Shown here: positions 28,205 to 37,468 of the stretch, piece by piece
Layout of the letters: each line of letters starts with the position of its first letter
Numbering within the stretch: the stretch's first letter is position 1
Notes under the pieces: model-generated
The model's input: only the letters and a program-made list of their open reading frames with translations
Database searches by the model: none
Told to the model about the DNA's origin: nothing
IMG/VR virus record: IMGVR_UViG_3300010362_000049
Span: 1 to 40,312 of that record
Strand: one strand, 5' to 3'
Source of the DNA: a virus
Lineage: Duplodnaviria; Caudoviricetes
Length of the DNA stretch: 40,312 bases
Made by a program: the position numbers and the translations under genes

Positions 28205-28299
28205 AGTGAGCGGTGAGATTATACATGCAATCTAACAAGCGACTAACAGGACCTCGAGCAAGGCCGCCCGGCCTGGTGTGACCTGTCCTGTCACTCGAC

Positions 28300-28830
28300 G
28301 GCGCTGCGGTGCGGTGAGCGGTGCGATCGGCGGGTGCCGCGGGTGCGGTGCGAGCGGTGCGATCGGGTGCGGCGCCGCGGTGCGGCGGGCTTCGCCAGAG
28401 GCCCGCGGCGGGCGCCAGAGGCCCGCGGGTGCGGCGGGCCCGCCTGAGGCCCGCCAGAGCCCGCCGCTCGTGCAGGCCGGCCACGTCGACACCGATCGAG
28501 AGCCCGCGGCGGGCGCCAGAGGCCCGCGGGTGCGGCGGGCCCGCCTGAGGCCCGCCAGAGCCCGCCAGAGCCCGCGGCGGGCGCCAAAGGCCCGCGGGTG
28601 CGGCGGGCCCGCCTGAGGCCCGCCCAGAGCCCGCCAGAGGCCCGCGGCGGGCGCCAGAGGCCCGCGGGTGCGGCGGGCCCGCCTGAGGCCCGCCAGAGCC
28701 CGCCAGAGCCCGCCAGAGGCCCGCGGCGGGCGCCAGAGGCCGCGGGTGCGGCGGGCCCGCCTGAGGCCCGCCCAGAGCCCGCCCAGAGCCCGCGGCGGGT
28801 GCGGGCGATCGGGTGTCGGGTGCGGGTGCA
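28300..28830. repeat. Very GC-rich tandem repeat region, five ~60-80 bp copies
   Basis: Core gcccgcggcgggcgccagaggcccgcgggtgcggcgggcccgcctgaggcccgccagag starts near 28401, 28502, 28570, 28640, 28719. Confidence 0.9.
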
Positions 28831-28863
28831 AAAAAAAAGGCGCCCGCGGGTGCGGGCGCCTTT
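28830..28863 (-). terminator. Rho-independent terminator
   Basis: aaaggcgcccgc-gggt-gcgggcgccttt stem-loop with a 9-nt U run on the - strand, just after 28884..29324. Confidence 0.85.
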
Positions 28864-28883
28864 GAGCGATCGGCGGGTGCGGG

Positions 28884-29324
28884 TTAGCGGCGGGCTTTCT
28901 TCGCGGGCGCCGCGGCGGGTGCGGGTGCGGGTGCGGGCGCCGCGGCGGGCTTGCGGCCTCGCTTCGCAAGCTGATCGTTTTCCGCTTTCAGCGCAGCGAT
29001 TTGCGCTTGCAGATCAGCCGACGAAACGGCGGGCGCCGCGGCGGGCTTGCGGCCTCGCTTCGCGGGTGCGGGTGCGGGCGCCGCGATCGCGATCGCGTTG
29101 CGCGGAAACCCGACCGCGGCGCCGCTATGCGCTGCTGTCGGTGTGACCGAACGGCGCCGCGGTGCGGGTGCGGGCGCCGCGGCCGCGGCCGCGGTGCGAG
29201 CGGCGATCGCCGCATCGCAGAGCGTATCAACGAAACCCCGTGCGGTTTTCCGATCGCCGATCGCGATCGCTTGCCTGAGTAAACCCCACGTCGGATCGGC
29301 GGGTGCCTTCGGTGTGCCTGGCAT
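28884..29324 (-). CDS. Ala/Pro/Lys-rich basic protein (histone-like)
   Basis: AKRGRKPAAAP twice, short coiled coil, has its own terminator. Confidence 0.6.
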   Translation of the reverse strand: MPGTPKAPADPTWGLLRQAIAIGDRKTARGFVDTLCDAAIAARTAAAAAAPAPAPRRRSVTPTAAHSGAAVGFPRNAIAIAAPAPAPAKRGRKPAAAPAVSSADLQAQIAALKAENDQLAKRGRKPAAAPAPAPAPAAAPAKKARR

Positions 29325-32543: not shown

Positions 32544-32836
32544 GATTTGTGATCAATTTGTGATCGATTTGCTGAAAAGCGCGCGTCAGCACTAACACAC
32601 GATGAAAAGGAAATTGAAGAATTGCTAAGGAATTAGAAGCGCGCGTAAGCCTACGTAAGCACCAGCCTTCTAAAGTCAGGCTTAGAAGGCCGGTGCTCTA
32701 TCCAACTGAGCTACGGGCGCATATGTGGGCTAAGTGCGTGCTATGCCAAGCGTTTAGCGCCTTTGATCAATCGCGGCATTCGACTAAGTGCTAACGCCGT
32801 TTGGTGATTTGTGATCGATTTGTGATCGATTTGCTG
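32544..32836. other. attP: tRNA-derived core flanked by integrase arm-type repeats
   Basis: (g/a)atttgtgatc x2 plus gatttgctg at both 32544-32574 and 32806-32836; 16-bp inverted arms at 32658-32673 / 32682-32697. Confidence 0.85.
32679..32720 (-). tRNA. 5' half of tRNA-Arg(TCT) (attP identity segment, not a full tRNA)
   Basis: GCGCCCGTAGCTCAGTTGGATAGAGCACCGGCCTTCTAAGCC; acceptor 5' strand, D-arm and anticodon loop present, no T-arm. Confidence 0.88.
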
Positions 32837-34156
32837 CGTTTCGGCGCCCGCCGCGGGTGCATCGGGTGTCGGTTCGGGCGCCGCGGGTGCCTTGCGCCAC
32901 GCATCATACGCCTGTCGCGAGCGGCGAATGTTCGCGGCCTTCGCGTGCAAGTAGGTCGCCGTTTGCGCGATCGAAGAATGGCCGAGCAGATGACTAATCT
33001 CACCAAGATCGATCTGTCCGCTTTCCAGCCACCGGCACGCGGCCTCGTGCCTGATGTCGTGAATGTTCAAGTCGATGTCGGCGAGCGCCGCGCGCGAGCG
33101 CGCATCGAAGTCACCAGTCTCGGTCCAGGCCGGCTCGATGTTATTCGAGCGCAGCACCGCCGTCAGGAAGCTCTTATCGATCGATTTGATTTGATCGCCG
33201 TAGGGATCACCGAAGACGAAGGCCCGCCGCGGCAGTGGCTTGCCCGCGGGATCGGTGCGCCGCAATCCGACTAACAGGTCGTACATCGGTTCGAACATTT
33301 CGATCATGCGCCCGCCCGTCGTGTCCGCGGTTTTGCCCGCGCCAACTTCCTCGCCGCGCACGTAGATTTGCCGCTGCACTAAGTGGACGTCAGGCCAGCG
33401 CAGCGCCAGCAGCTCACCGATACGCATGGCGGTTTCCATCAGTCCGATCAGCACGAGCGGCAGCAATCGCTCGCGTGATTCCGTCGCGGCCTCAAGTAGA
33501 TTCGACCATTCGCGCTCGTCGATGCGGCGCCGGCGCTGCGCAAACTTTTTGCGGCCTAATCGTTTCACCAAGTCAGGCGGTGCGGTCGCAATCGGATCGG
33601 CCGGAATGTGACCGCTCCATTTCGCCCATCGACTGAATTGCCCGATCAGCGTCCGGTACTTGCCCCAGGTCGAATGCGCCAAGTCACCGAGCGCCGCGCG
33701 CACCGCGATCCAATCATCGATCGTCACCTTTGCCATGATGCGATCGCCGAAGCGGTGTTTCCCGATCGTCACGTTACGGAGCGTACCGAGCTTGTAGCGA
33801 TCCTCGGCTTTGCTGCGATCGGTTTTATCGGGTGTGACGGTCAGACTGAGTTCATCGTAGAGCGTCACTAACAGGTCGACGGTGAGCCCTTGCGGTTTGT
33901 CGGGTTCCGCGGGTGCCGGCGGTGCGTACCCTTTGGCCTTCTGATAGGTTTTGTTGCGGATGGCCTGACGGATTTTTTCCGCGACGTCTTCCGCTTCGGT
34001 TTTCGTGTTATGCCACGGATCGATCGCAAGCACGTCGATCGCGTACCGAGTCACGTTCGGGGCTTCGCCGCGGAAGTGCTTCATGTACCAGGCATGGTCG
34101 AAGCACTTCGGCCACCTGGCTTCGTCGCACCCGCAGCGTTTCGTCACAATGCTCAT
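32741..34156 (-). CDS. int: Tyrosine integrase
   Basis: TAMRIGELLALRW, K, HDIRH, LLGHS, Y catalytic residues. Confidence 0.95.
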   Translation of the reverse strand: MSIVTKRCGCDEARWPKCFDHAWYMKHFRGEAPNVTRYAIDVLAIDPWHNTKTEAEDVAEKIRQAIRNKTYQKAKGYAPPAPAEPDKPQGLTVDLLVTLYDELSLTVTPDKTDRSKAEDRYKLGTLRNVTIGKHRFGDRIMAKVTIDDWIAVRAALGDLAHSTWGKYRTLIGQFSRWAKWSGHIPADPIATAPPDLVKRLGRKKFAQRRRRIDEREWSNLLEAATESRERLLPLVLIGLMETAMRIGELLALRWPDVHLVQRQIYVRGEEVGAGKTADTTGGRMIEMFEPMYDLLVGLRRTDPAGKPLPRRAFVFGDPYGDQIKSIDKSFLTAVLRSNNIEPAWTETGDFDARSRAALADIDLNIHDIRHEAACRWLESGQIDLGEISHLLGHSSIAQTATYLHAKAANIRRSRQAYDAWRKAPAAPEPTPDAPAAGAETQQIDHKSITNHQTALALSRMPRLIKGAKRLA

Positions 34157-34597: not shown

Positions 34598-34882
34598 TTA
34601 TCGCCCAGATTTGCGCGGAAAAGGCCGCGGGCCGATCGCGGGTGCGGGCTCGCCTGGTGCGTCAGGATTGATCACCGTCGGGGTACTGAGACTAATCAGC
34701 CACGCATCGAGCCACGTATCGAGGATGCGGATTTGATACTTGGTGCCGAGGCGTGAGGCACGTAAGCGACCGTCGTGAATCGCGCGGTAAATCAACTGCG
34801 CGCTGCATTTCGCGCGGGCCGCGGCCTCTTTGACCGTGAGCCATTCCGTCGAGACGCGATCGGCGGGTGCGGCGATCGTCAC
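34598..34882 (-). CDS. xis: Excisionase-family HTH protein
   Basis: WLTVKEAA....S...IYRAI..G.L.A..LG....RI....LDAW; upstream of the integrase. Confidence 0.8.
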   Translation of the reverse strand: MTIAAPADRVSTEWLTVKEAAARAKCSAQLIYRAIHDGRLRASRLGTKYQIRILDTWLDAWLISLSTPTVINPDAPGEPAPAIGPRPFPRKSGR

Positions 34883-35181
34883 GATCGTTCGGCCTCGATG
34901 CGCGCGACCCAGGCCGCGATGTCGATCACCGTCACAAAGTCACCCTGCGGCAACCACGTCAGCCAGTCGGCTTTGAATCGCTGATGCAGTACGCGCGCCT
35001 TGTGCGGCGTCACGCCGGCCTCTAACAGCAGCGCGAGCGCCAACTGCGCAGGACCGCTGCCAGCATAGCCCCAGTTGAAACCGGTGGGACTATGGTTCCA
35101 GACCTCGAGAGAGCGATCGGGCAGCAGCTCGCGCCCGTCGACTAACACGCGCCTGGTGCGCCAGTCACCTTGAATCGTCAT
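34879..35181 (-). CDS. DUF6166-like protein
   Basis: NHSPTGFNWGYAGSGPAQLALALL; ATG at 35181 preceded by AGGA from the last array junction. Confidence 0.75.
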   Translation of the reverse strand: MTIQGDWRTRRVLVDGRELLPDRSLEVWNHSPTGFNWGYAGSGPAQLALALLLEAGVTPHKARVLHQRFKADWLTWLPQGDFVTVIDIAAWVARIEAERS

Positions 35182-35187
35182 GTATTT

Positions 35188-35768
35188 CCTGCCTTCCGCA
35201 CCGTGCCTTGTCGCCCGAGACTGGCCCAAAGCGGGGTGGCCCAGTCTTACCGCGACTCACGAGAACGGCCATGCCGCACGCCGTCATGCCTCAACATTCC
35301 ATTCATGTCACGTCAATCGCTACCGCATCGCGACGTGGCGGCCTTGTCTAACACGCCTTGCCCGAACGCGCCTGGATAGACGTGCCGTTACCCGCCGCAT
35401 CTTTGTCGGCCGTAACAAACCCGACCCCGCCCCGCCGGGTACGATCCCGCGCGACCGTGCCGAGCCGAATCGGCCGCGTCAGATCGCGCGCCTTGTCGCG
35501 TCGAACCGAGCCTGAGCGAGTCACGCCGGATCTCGCGAAGCCTCCGATGTCACGTCGGCCGCGTCGGAACTGAGTGAGGCTGATCCAATCTCGTCCCGTC
35601 ACACCTAGCCGGCCATACCCAATCTAACCGCGCCGCGCCCTTCGCATGCAGCCAGGCGCCGAGCTTCCGCGCCACTCGCGTCACCCATAACGGGCCTTGC
35701 CCGACCTGCCAAACCGGAACTGACCATATCCTGAGAAGCGTTCCGCCCGTCGCAACGCCCATGCCGAA
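35188..35768 (-). ncRNA. Periodic (GGY/GAY/GTY-NN)n guide-like array, about 8-9 segments (VIPR-like)
   Basis: Visible 5-nt period, e.g. GGC TA GGT GT GAC GG GAC GA GAT TG GAT CA; junctions GGC-C-G / GGC-A-G ending at + positions 35193, 35270, 35343, 35411, 35475, 35560, 35614, (35653), 35710; no credible ORF. Confidence 0.85.
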
Positions 35769-36230
35769 TCAGGCAACCTGTTTCACCACTAACTGCACAC
35801 CGACGATTTCATCGAGTAGCGCGTGGATTTCATTCTGTAACCCGAGCGGCGCCGACAAGTCGAGCGCGCGTCGGACATGACCCGCGGCCGTTTCCAATGT
35901 GTAGATCAAACTTTCGCGCGCGTGATCGGGATTCTGCCGCAGTGTCGCGACCGATTGATACCCTTGGCCTTTCGTGTTCGGCAGGTGCACATACATCGGC
36001 GCCTTGATCGTGGTCGTTTCGTTGGTGACGACCACAGTCACGGCACCGATGATTTCACGGGCCCGCCACAGCCAGTGTTTTTCGGCGGCACGCTGTTGGT
36101 TCCAATCGAACAAGCCGTGAAGCGGACTACGTTTGTTTTTGGCATCCCGCACCACCTGCGCCGGCGTGAGTTGACCGTCGGCATTCTCCAGCGAGCGCAG
36201 GCGACGCAGTTGCGTCTTCGTCAGTGTCAT
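35769..36230 (-). CDS. Accessory protein of the RAMP/array locus (153 aa)
   Basis: GQLTPAQVV.DA....SPLHGLFDW....AA...W...AR.II; starts 4 bp after the RAMP gene and its stop abuts the array. Confidence 0.8.
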   Translation of the reverse strand: MTLTKTQLRRLRSLENADGQLTPAQVVRDAKNKRSPLHGLFDWNQQRAAEKHWLWRAREIIGAVTVVVTNETTTIKAPMYVHLPNTKGQGYQSVATLRQNPDHARESLIYTLETAAGHVRRALDLSAPLGLQNEIHALLDEIVGVQLVVKQVA

Positions 36231-36234
36231 CGAC

Positions 36235-37095
36235 TTACACCGCCATCTCGGCATCATCATCCGTGTCGTCGGGCTCACGGCCGTTACCGTGGGCGGGCGC
36301 ATCGGTGAGCCCTTGCAAGGTGCGCGCGGCAAGCTCGTCACTGAACCACGTCAACAATTCGGCCGTTTCATCGTCATAAGGCACCGGATGGGCGAGCGCA
36401 TCGACTTGCGCTGCGCGACCACCGGTTTTCACGATCCGTTTGAAATCGGGATCGTTTTGGTCACAGACGCGAAAGGCACCATAGTTCAGCGCACCTTTTT
36501 CGGCTCGGCCGTCACCCACGCCAGCGATGATGCCGCCGGCCGCGAGTAGATTTGCGACCGCCTGCGCTCGAATCAGCGGCTTCACAAACGTGATGGTCAG
36601 GCGACAAGCCCACTCACGCATCGCAGCGCGCGTACGAATATCGGGTGTGCGATTCATGTCGGCCGATCGGACCACATCCATCTTCAGCAACGGGATCCCG
36701 AAGACTTCAACCAAGTCACCGTGATCGCCGTCCACTCGGACTAAGCGGCCGACTTGAGCTTTCTTTGCACCTGGGATGTCGAGCGCGGCCGCGCGCATCG
36801 CACCTTTGAAGGCAGCGGCGCGAATGGCGAATAACGTCGCTGCGGTGGGATCCTTCAGCACGTACGGTGACGCTCTGAATTCATCGAGAGGCACATGCTT
36901 CAGAGTCGTCGCACGTTCGATCGCCGTCTTACGACCCCGAGGCAGTAACAATTCGTGCTGCGCCTTTTCGCTGGGCCGATTGTGCACGAGCGTGGTCATG
37001 CCGAGAATGCACGAGTGGAACGTGCCCGTCGAGACTTTCAGGATCTCGGTGATTTCCTCAGTCGCCTTCGGTTTGGTATCCTTCGACTTAGCCAT
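36235..37095 (-). CDS. Stand-alone Cas7/RAMP-like RNA-binding protein (286 aa)
   Basis: LG.TTLVHN, AAAFKGAMRAAA helix, RTRA...W..RL.I.F, glycine-rich loop GG..AGVGDGR.EKG...YG.F.V; AGGAGG RBS. Confidence 0.82.
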   Translation of the reverse strand: MAKSKDTKPKATEEITEILKVSTGTFHSCILGMTTLVHNRPSEKAQHELLLPRGRKTAIERATTLKHVPLDEFRASPYVLKDPTAATLFAIRAAAFKGAMRAAALDIPGAKKAQVGRLVRVDGDHGDLVEVFGIPLLKMDVVRSADMNRTPDIRTRAAMREWACRLTITFVKPLIRAQAVANLLAAGGIIAGVGDGRAEKGALNYGAFRVCDQNDPDFKRIVKTGGRAAQVDALAHPVPYDDETAELLTWFSDELAARTLQGLTDAPAHGNGREPDDTDDDAEMAV

Positions 37096-37162: not shown

Positions 37163-37468
37163 TCACAAGCCGCGCCCCGTCTTTGCGCCGTGGCACCCGT
37201 GACAGAGCGCCTGCAAGTTAGTTTCGTCCCAAAAGAGCGCGAGATCGCCGCGGTGCGGAATGCGATGATCGACATCGACGGTCCGATCACCGCAGTCACA
37301 AACCGGCTTCGATCGGAGCACGCGAGCGCGCAAGCGGCGCCAGCGCGGCGATCGATAGAGCGCGCGCACCGCGGCATTCGGCCGCACCGCGTCACGAAAA
37401 GGATCATGCTTGCGGCAGTACCCATGCGCGACTAACGTGCGGCAGCGCGGCCGCAGACAGAACCTCAC
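37163..37468 (-). CDS. Terminase-associated (gp74-like) HNH endonuclease
   Basis: Y.S.RW..LR..VL...P.C...VDH.IPH.G...LFWD..NLQALC..CH..KT. Confidence 0.9.
   Translation of the reverse strand: MRFCLRPRCRTLVAHGYCRKHDPFRDAVRPNAAVRALYRSPRWRRLRARVLRSKPVCDCGDRTVDVDHRIPHRGDLALFWDETNLQALCHGCHGAKTGRGL

Follow-up and report, generated by a model that had tools for sequence, protein, structure and literature searches.

A probable VIPR guide array beside a Cas7-like gene in an uncultured soil phage

VIPR systems, described in bioRxiv preprints of April-October 2026 (10.64898/2026.04.26.720920; 10.64898/2026.04.26.720927; 10.64898/2026.10.15.759431), are the closest described relatives of the locus reported here, a 587-nt gap between genes (positions 35182-35768) in the phage record IMGVR_UViG_3300010362_000049. 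The whole stretch analysed, 40,312 bp long, is called the window below. We conclude that this gap is very probably a VIPR guide array, which would be paired with a nearby Cas7-like gene (vipr) and would target the double-stranded DNA (dsDNA) of rival phages. An earlier note on this DNA had read the dinucleotides of the array as codons with the wobble base skipped, and our results support that interpretation. Since VIPR is already described in the 2026 preprints, the locus is a further example of a known system; its mechanism is in print, and our results support it as a previously uncharacterised member.

A VIPR system comprises a Vipr protein (a minimal RAMP with an RRM core, a glycine-rich loop and a thumb), an accessory vap gene and guide RNAs (vrRNAs) of 9-16 YNNGG repeats. 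According to a '1 nt skip rule', NN pairs of a vrRNA match a target of the form NN-x-NN-x, with the skip bases 'overwhelmingly' at codon wobble positions and with targets on both strands. The described outcome is dsDNA binding and transcriptional repression, and the natural targets are competing phages and satellites, with no self-targets. Seven types are distinguished, whose variant consensus repeats include NNNGG, YNNNG and NNNNG. Frequent internal degeneracy of vrRNAs is noted, as are 'staggered arrays' in which vrRNAs overlap by 1 nt, the end of one being the start of the next (fig. S18 legend; all 10.64898/2026.04.26.720920). Structures of the SUSP1 Vipr have one protomer per repeat with G1, G2 and Y3 buried, N4 and N5 paired with the target strand, the skipped base flipped out and W178 stacked on G2 (10.64898/2026.04.26.720927), and dsDNA binding is seen both in vitro and in the cryo-electron microscopy structures (10.64898/2026.04.26.720920; 10.64898/2026.04.26.720927). 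Codon periodicity is reported to prevent mutational escape (10.64898/2026.10.15.759431).

The pentamer array and its Cas7-like neighbour

The elements that carry the argument are as follows.
36235..37095, minus strand: putative vipr, Cas7/Csm3-like RAMP protein of 286 aa
35769..36230, minus strand: vap-like accessory gene (153 aa) that separates vipr from the array; phrog_15946 of unknown function (PHROG E 7e-13)
35182..35768, minus strand: predicted vrRNA array, about 110 G-N-Y-N-N pentamers, recognised by periodicity, unit parse and delimiters
35615..35654, minus strand: S49 guide, 8 NN units reading LCSAAYWI
35561..35610, minus strand: JAB guide, 10 NN units reading YVGEWHSHPA (JAMM/JAB metal-binding motif)
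35217..35266, minus strand: HNH guide, 10 NN units reading LEAKCHRCHS (HNH CxxCH)

The gap separates two minus-strand genes, the 153-aa open reading frame (ORF) at 35769-36230 and a DUF6166 gene at 34879-35181. It contains no credible ORF, and no frame of it is coding-like. Its period-5 autocorrelation is 0.372, against at most 0.30 at the best period in the two 580-nt flanking stretches, and scanning windows of 100 nt within it score 0.38-0.43 at period 5 (phage-wide mean 0.257, standard deviation 0.051). When the period-5 power of C on the plus strand was computed over 200-nt scanning windows, the 15 top ones of the phage all started at 35141-35581, with a power of 10.4-14.8 against a phage-wide median of 1.6 and a 99th percentile of 8.9. 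The 5-nt periodicity of the gap is unique in the 40-kb phage, and the dinucleotide array that the earlier note had placed at 35188-35768 is real.

On the minus strand, GG-GG spacings peak at 5, 9-10, 14-15 and 19-20, and the units parse as G-N-Y-N-N, with occasional 4-nt units, mostly GGCC or GGCA, that move the phase. Such delimiters, GGCC(G) or GGCA(G), stand at 35710, 35614, 35560, 35475, 35343, 35270 and 35193; in the window and in its relatives alike, they shorten one repeat to 4 nt every 8-14 units. About seven segments lie between them, where the earlier note had spoken of four. In 40 strict units, position 2 is G in 55%, A in 25%, T in 12% and C in 7%. Like the published arrays, the gap is a tandem pentamer array with a constrained triplet and a hypervariable NN, and its consensus is G-N-Y. 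No Rfam family was found in the array, and RNA folding of both strands was no better than that of shuffles (z +0.60 and +0.96).

The true start of vipr is MAKSK, which gives 286 aa, and a 396-aa ORF is an upstream extension of it. The protein has 1110 relatives at E<=0.001. An AlphaFold2 model built with 34 relatives as the alignment reached a mean pLDDT of 83 and a pTM of 0.77, and in a Foldseek search of the PDB every listed row was a CRISPR-Cas effector (best E 7e-5, probability 1.00), chiefly type III Csm and also gRAMP/Cas7-11 and type VII. The profile of the 34 relatives detected one phiSUSP1 ORF (KT454805.2, 28474-29061, minus strand, 201 aa; E 6.7e-5 over 49 positions), which lies between one upstream and three downstream GGT/NN arrays, whereas tblastn of the window Vipr against GenBank phages, phiSUSP1 included, gave no match. 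The G-loop reads GVGDGR in the window and GVGDWR in the phiSUSP1 ORF. From its position and the residues D177/W178/R179, we infer that this ORF is the published SUSP1 Vipr. The model and the sequence comparison together identify the window product as a predicted minimal RAMP homologous to the published Vipr family. Single-protein searches with the two flanking proteins against IMG/VR and GenBank phages returned nothing useful.

The 153-aa accessory protein has 59 relatives, and a homologue adjoins pentamer arrays in a low-GC phage locus, L020 (E 2e-11). Its fold search gave no match at E<=0.001, the best rows being winged-helix DNA binders at E>=0.37, and BLASTP found no similarity between it and the phiSUSP1 neighbour gene. 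No CRISPR repeats or adaptation genes were found in the window, and the sole cas-related match is a Cas4-domain exonuclease PHROG far from the locus. As in published VIPR systems, the locus is minimal, stands outside a CRISPR-cas context and includes an accessory gene.

Decoded guides and their targets

For decoding, N4N5 of consecutive in-phase units were taken as the first two bases of codons, and exact NNx patterns were scanned in IMG/VR. The S49 guide (CT TG AG GC GC TA TG AT) reads L C S A A Y W I, which we take to be the S49 motif that holds the catalytic serine. Its 16-base pattern had 19 IMG/VR matches. Ten of them, all in-frame and sense, fall within ORFs of 287-322 aa. Nine of the ten stem from contigs closely related to one another and the tenth from another phage; the three of these ORFs that were scanned were all Peptidase_S49 (E 1e-24 to 1e-27). 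The other nine matches contained stops or fell in short ORFs.

The JAB guide (TA GT GG GA TG CA TC CA CC GC) reads Y V G E W H S H P A. Its 8-unit core had 12 matches, four of them in ORFs of 174-189 aa that read yVGEWHSHP[N/Q]G and match nine units (18/18 bases, 35610-35566), in-frame and sense. Three of the four were scanned and gave Prok-JAB at E 3e-8 and 1e-5, above the Pfam cut-off, and at 7e-5, just below it.

The HNH guide (CT GA GC AA TG CA CG TG CA TC) reads L E A K C H R C H S, and its 8-unit core had 16 matches. One of these, G001:C1:8926-8954 on the minus strand, fits all 10 units (20/20), in-frame and sense. G001 is a 37.6-kb, 64%-GC phage whose portal, capsid and terminase are common with the window at 65-71% nucleotide identity, and its target ORF has 46% identity (E 8e-28) with the HNH gene that the window itself carries at 37163-37468. 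At the guide site the own gene reads L-Q-A-L-C-H-G-C-H-G and matches 13/20 bases (hand count from the site DNA). From these sequences, the system appears to be aimed at a rival's version of an HNH gene that the phage keeps in diverged form. The chance that any of the 16 core matches would extend over four more bases is about 0.06 (16 x 1/256), and none of 200 shuffled HNH NN orders reached 20/20 in the G001 contig, the maximum being 17. Three further core matches (L230, L235 and L239) lie in ORFs of about 333 aa without a Pfam family, read DAKWHRWH and agree with the full guide at 16/20; they may be chance or a second target family.

In these exact matches inside coding genes, the skipped base falls at codon position 3 for the S49 guide (16/16, 10 genes), the JAB guide (18/18, four genes) and the HNH guide (20/20, one gene), which bears out the gapped NN-x-NN-x targets in codon register that the earlier note had proposed. 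The per-segment scan of phages that it had suggested yielded matches for all three guides. It had also decoded four segments, three in sense and one in antisense; the three sense motifs were confirmed (JAB at 9/10 units), and the antisense RHH start was not. Our candidate for the latter (35339-35305, antisense M-T-K/N-L-A-A-V-R), perhaps not the segment that was meant, had about 160 metagenome matches and looked random. Among the 120 matches listed there was no family, and the base after AT was C (49 matches), G (40), T (16) or A (15), with no start-codon enrichment. A second RHH candidate (35300-35271, antisense [IM]-A-P-[IM]-S-[IM]) was too short to scan.

IMG/VR matches outside the named families numbered 9, 8 and 15 per 16-base pattern for S49, JAB and HNH, respectively, figures from which the rate of chance matches can be gauged internally. 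Within the phage's own genome, eight guides at skips of 0-3 gave no convincing match, with one nominal excess (13/14 at skip 3) that was reached by 1 of 100 shuffles. At skip 1, only two short guides matched at least 80% of NN (10/12 and 12/14, equalled by 100/100 and 47/100 shuffles); the best long-guide match was 17/22, equalled by 7/100 shuffles, and the own S49 gene matched the S49 guide at no more than 7/16. As described for VIPR systems, no self-targeting at >=80% NN beyond shuffles was observed. The S49 pattern was also scanned in 401 bacterial genomes (the class of one Vipr-bearing metagenome-assembled genome), with 0 matches and 0 control matches, an uninformative result.

Could these motifs be chance readings of a decayed, functionless pentanucleotide microsatellite? 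The phage does contain other simple repeats, for example GCGGT x15 at 28301-28372, and the RHH pattern behaved like random sequence. We nevertheless consider this explanation scarcely credible: 10/19 S49 and 4/12 JAB matches are in-frame in one protein family each, the HNH match is 20/20 against an expectation of about 0.06, and the layout recurs beside the same gene in 78/80 distant relatives with different NN and the same frame. The microsatellite, together with a TRAP-like protein-binding RNA, a G-quadruplex tract and a Chi-like or rut-like element, was dropped on finding the RAMP neighbour and the VIPR preprint.

The three confirmed guides share the sequence and polarity of the coding strand. 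Guides identical to the coding strand cannot pair with mRNA and can pair only with the template DNA strand. The guides verified here are all sense, so the use of both orientations, on which the earlier note had relied, is not shown for this locus; in our view the sense polarity is the clearer sign that DNA is the target. Periodic triplet-plus-spacer RNAs that bind oligomeric proteins do exist, TRAP being an example, and the absence of excess secondary structure is expected of a single-stranded protein-binding RNA. Even so, we consider an action on RNA very improbable, whether the array served as an antisense mRNA regulator or as a protein sponge with TRAP/CsrB-like periodic sites: the verified guides are unable to pair with mRNA, and the neighbouring Cas7-like RAMP is a homologue of the SUSP1 Vipr, which is described as dsDNA-binding. 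A VIPR array aimed at dsDNA, the target that the earlier note had named, agrees with the published rule, and so does its further claim that synonymous changes cannot escape recognition (10.64898/2026.10.15.759431).

Relatives, surroundings and state of the array

We collected 408 IMG/VR relatives of vipr and kept 80, at 46-64% identity, for a check of the array. In 78 of the 80, a period-5 G tract with a power of at least 12 lies on the vipr strand (exceptions L095 and L151), and most of these tracts begin 400-600 nt past vipr, leaving space for a small accessory gene. Locus L111 has crisp runs of 10-14 GGCNN units, each ended by a 4-nt GGCA, and the array architecture of the window is shared with L111, L093 and L082, with different NN in the same frame. 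The arrays of L082 and L020 end in a hairpin or terminator. Among 281 strict guides from the relatives, the variance of the sense-versus-antisense score at codon positions 1-2 was 5.43, against 4.34 +/- 0.36 in 300 shuffles, none of which reached 5.43; individual guides are thus more coherent in this codon reading than shuffled ones (locus composition uncontrolled).

L020, the low-GC phage IMGVR_UViG_3300027902_000008, was found among 80 IMG/VR loci with a DUF6166 relative. It carries very clean NN-GTT pentamer arrays (1360-1530 and 2085-2190) on either side of the accessory-gene homologue, and the gene preceding this homologue resembles the window ORF 36235-37095 (E 3e-9). Its first array ends in a hairpin and a T-run, its repeat is a GUU variant of the consensus, and its Vipr has His at the position equivalent to SUSP1 W178. 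Across loci, the G-loop Asp is followed by Gly (10 loci), Trp (54), Phe (24), Tyr (2) or His (1). The share of G at repeat position 2 averages 0.64 in the 10 Gly loci against 0.76 in the 54 Trp loci (Mann-Whitney p 0.009; the two ranges overlap, and the loci lack phylogenetic independence) and against 0.76-0.79 for the other residues (relatedness uncorrected). The G-loop residue and the repeat code may co-vary, which we offer as a lead only.

Strict G-N-Y-N-N runs of at least 8 units in loci L082-L193 (e.g. L153, L146 and L086) number 87 opposite the vipr strand and 281 on it, and several of these loci carry another array upstream of vipr, so that the clade is variable in the number and orientation of its arrays.

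Other features near the array are as follows.
37163..37468, minus strand: small HNH endonuclease gene of the phage itself, adjoining vipr on its upstream side (Pfam HNH PF01844, E 1.2e-4, 22.6 bits, above cut-off)
35218..35247, minus strand: imperfect hairpin that falls within the last guide, close to the array's 3' end; inverted repeat with 11-nt arms, 10/11 paired
34879..35181, minus strand: DUF6166 gene directly downstream of the array (Pfam E 5e-22)

The DUF6166 gene is probably in the operon of the array. As an array-linked gene it was rejected, as a strong pentamer array occurs in only 1/80 IMG/VR DUF6166 loci, namely L020. The phage record has 62% GC and an estimated completeness of 97% (whole virus record), and its one DNA run is labelled soil metagenome. 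Pfam and PHROGs identify genes for a portal, S49 protease, capsid, terminase, integrase, excisionase, RusA and two HNH proteins, among others; from this gene set, the phage is therefore taken to be temperate and tailed. Directly downstream of the integrase gene at 32741-34156, there is a tRNA-like match at 32638-32720 on the minus strand (Rfam tRNA, 30.9 bits, slightly over the gathering score). It probably represents an attP core that came from a tRNA gene of the host, which it could help to name.

Elsewhere in the window, 28260-29280 is a non-coding, highly repetitive stretch of about 1 kb between the DUF5131/terminase block and the next operon. Besides the GCGGT run mentioned above, it has hairpins of the form GGCCCGC...GCGGGCC that make up higher-order repeats with lengths of 59, 79 and 148 nt (28393-28799), hexamer runs of GCGGGT and, near 28838-28868, an element that resembles a terminator (A9-hairpin-T3). 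The stretch is unlike the guide array because the 'NN' of its GGT-GC units is constant; a cos/pac region or a decoy was raised as a possibility for it.

We consider it unlikely that the array is a largely decaying or inactive VIPR array whose motif matches are past guides, with nothing silenced now. Several observations would fit such decay. The period-5 power is 10-15 in the window (200-nt scanning windows) against 12-32 in the relatives (100-nt scanning windows), many units are irregular with phase slips, a target is recognisable for only three of about seven segments, the hairpin at 35218-35247 lacks a T-run, and a simple scan called neither promoter nor terminator. Against decay, vipr and the accessory gene are intact, vipr retains 50 columns that do not vary among 34 relatives, one guide fits a site in a related phage perfectly (20/20), and internal degeneracy of vrRNAs is described as frequent in published systems (10.64898/2026.04.26.720920).

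Other points weigh against an active VIPR guide array with the targets named above. No RNA run holding the locus is listed, and array transcription and processing are predicted. The array is more degenerate than those of the relatives, given the share of G at position 2, and several units of the confirmed guides do not begin with G. A target was identified for only the three segments. The full 10-unit JAB pattern had 0 IMG/VR matches, the tenth unit being mismatched, and Pfam does not call the G001 target ORF an HNH protein at E<=0.1, so that its label comes from homology to the window HNH. The S49 and JAB matches lie in phages unrelated to the window (GC 36-57% against 62%); from them it follows that the guides encode genuine conserved motifs, but not that these phages are targeted in nature. 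The collection scans used skip-1 patterns only. A sliding test on five target contigs gave 16/16 for the three known guides alone and at no skip but 1, and it is circular, the contigs having been picked by skip-1 matches; the other window guides gave nothing in phase at 16/16 in these contigs. Similarly, 225 of the 281 guides from relatives had no target at any skip length in 1.09 Mb of local loci.

Comparison with described systems and proposed mechanism

The closest described system is the VIPR of Escherichia phage SUSP1 (type II). Both loci are phage-encoded and have a Cas7-like Vipr with a GVGD-x-R G-loop followed by a small accessory gene, and in both the flanking non-coding pentamer arrays have three constrained and two free bases, no self-target, and NN pairs that are read at codon positions 1-2 of other phages' genes. 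The proteins, however, are beyond the reach of BLAST and are linked by the profile alone, and the accessory genes are unrelated by BLASTP. The Vipr has about 195 aa in SUSP1 and 286 aa in the window, W178 of SUSP1 is Gly in the window, and the repeat is GGY in SUSP1 and G-N-Y here, with G at position 2 in about 55%. SUSP1 has separate vrRNAs of about 100 nt, each with an invariant pseudoknot tail, whereas the window has one long continuous array with 4-nt phase-shift delimiters and no recognised tail. In this respect it resembles the staggered vrRNA arrays of other VIPR types, whose 1-nt overlap, as given in the legend of fig. S18, fits the GGCC(G)/GGCA(G) units (10.64898/2026.04.26.720920).

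Class 1 CRISPR-Cas backbones (Csm3/Cas7 filaments) are alike in protein fold, in having one protomer per RNA repeat length and in a thumb that periodically breaks the guide-target duplex. In contrast to them, the window has no CRISPR repeats or adaptation genes, and its guides are hard-wired in a genomic array. The period is 6 nt with 5 paired in those systems and 5 nt with only 2 paired in VIPR, where guide and target differ in register (5 vs 3).

By analogy with SUSP1, the array would be transcribed with the operon and cut into guide RNAs. One Vipr protomer would bind each pentamer and bury G-N-Y, so that the filament would present the NN pairs; the complex would then open dsDNA, the NN pairs would bind the target strand with every third base skipped, and the bound gene would be transcriptionally repressed. 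The 4-nt GGCC/GGCA units may be the boundaries of a 'staggered' array, where vrRNAs overlap by 1 nt and the final G of one is also the first G of the next. The likely role is to interfere with competing phages, whose head-maturation protease (S49), HNH nuclease and JAB-domain genes would be silenced. Guides would be aimed at conserved catalytic motifs, at codons that tolerate neither synonymous nor most non-synonymous changes.

More tentatively, it is possible, though we would not favour it yet, that this clade is a distinct VIPR variant. Its Vipr would lack the aromatic residue that stacks on G2 (Gly for W178) and would read a relaxed G-N-Y, its single staggered array would have no recognisable tail, and its guides would sit at catalytic-motif codons of whole families (JAMM H-S-H-P, the S49 serine motif and HNH C-x-x-C-H) instead of one rival.

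The VIPR rule was worked out mainly on phages of E. coli and Pseudomonas, and here it also reads sensibly in an uncultured high-GC soil phage. The window belongs to a distant and large branch of the family, with its 1110 protein relatives and 408 IMG/VR loci, and it supplies natural guide-target pairs, the best of which, the HNH guide at 20/20 in G001 against 13/20 in the own copy, is a self/non-self pair. All three decoded targets lie on conserved catalytic motifs, which suggests that the guides use positions that rivals cannot change and would thereby extend the 'escape-proof' argument from synonymous sites to whole motifs. If guides at family-wide catalytic motifs prove true, one guide could silence many unrelated competitors, which could escape by neither synonymous nor amino-acid change.

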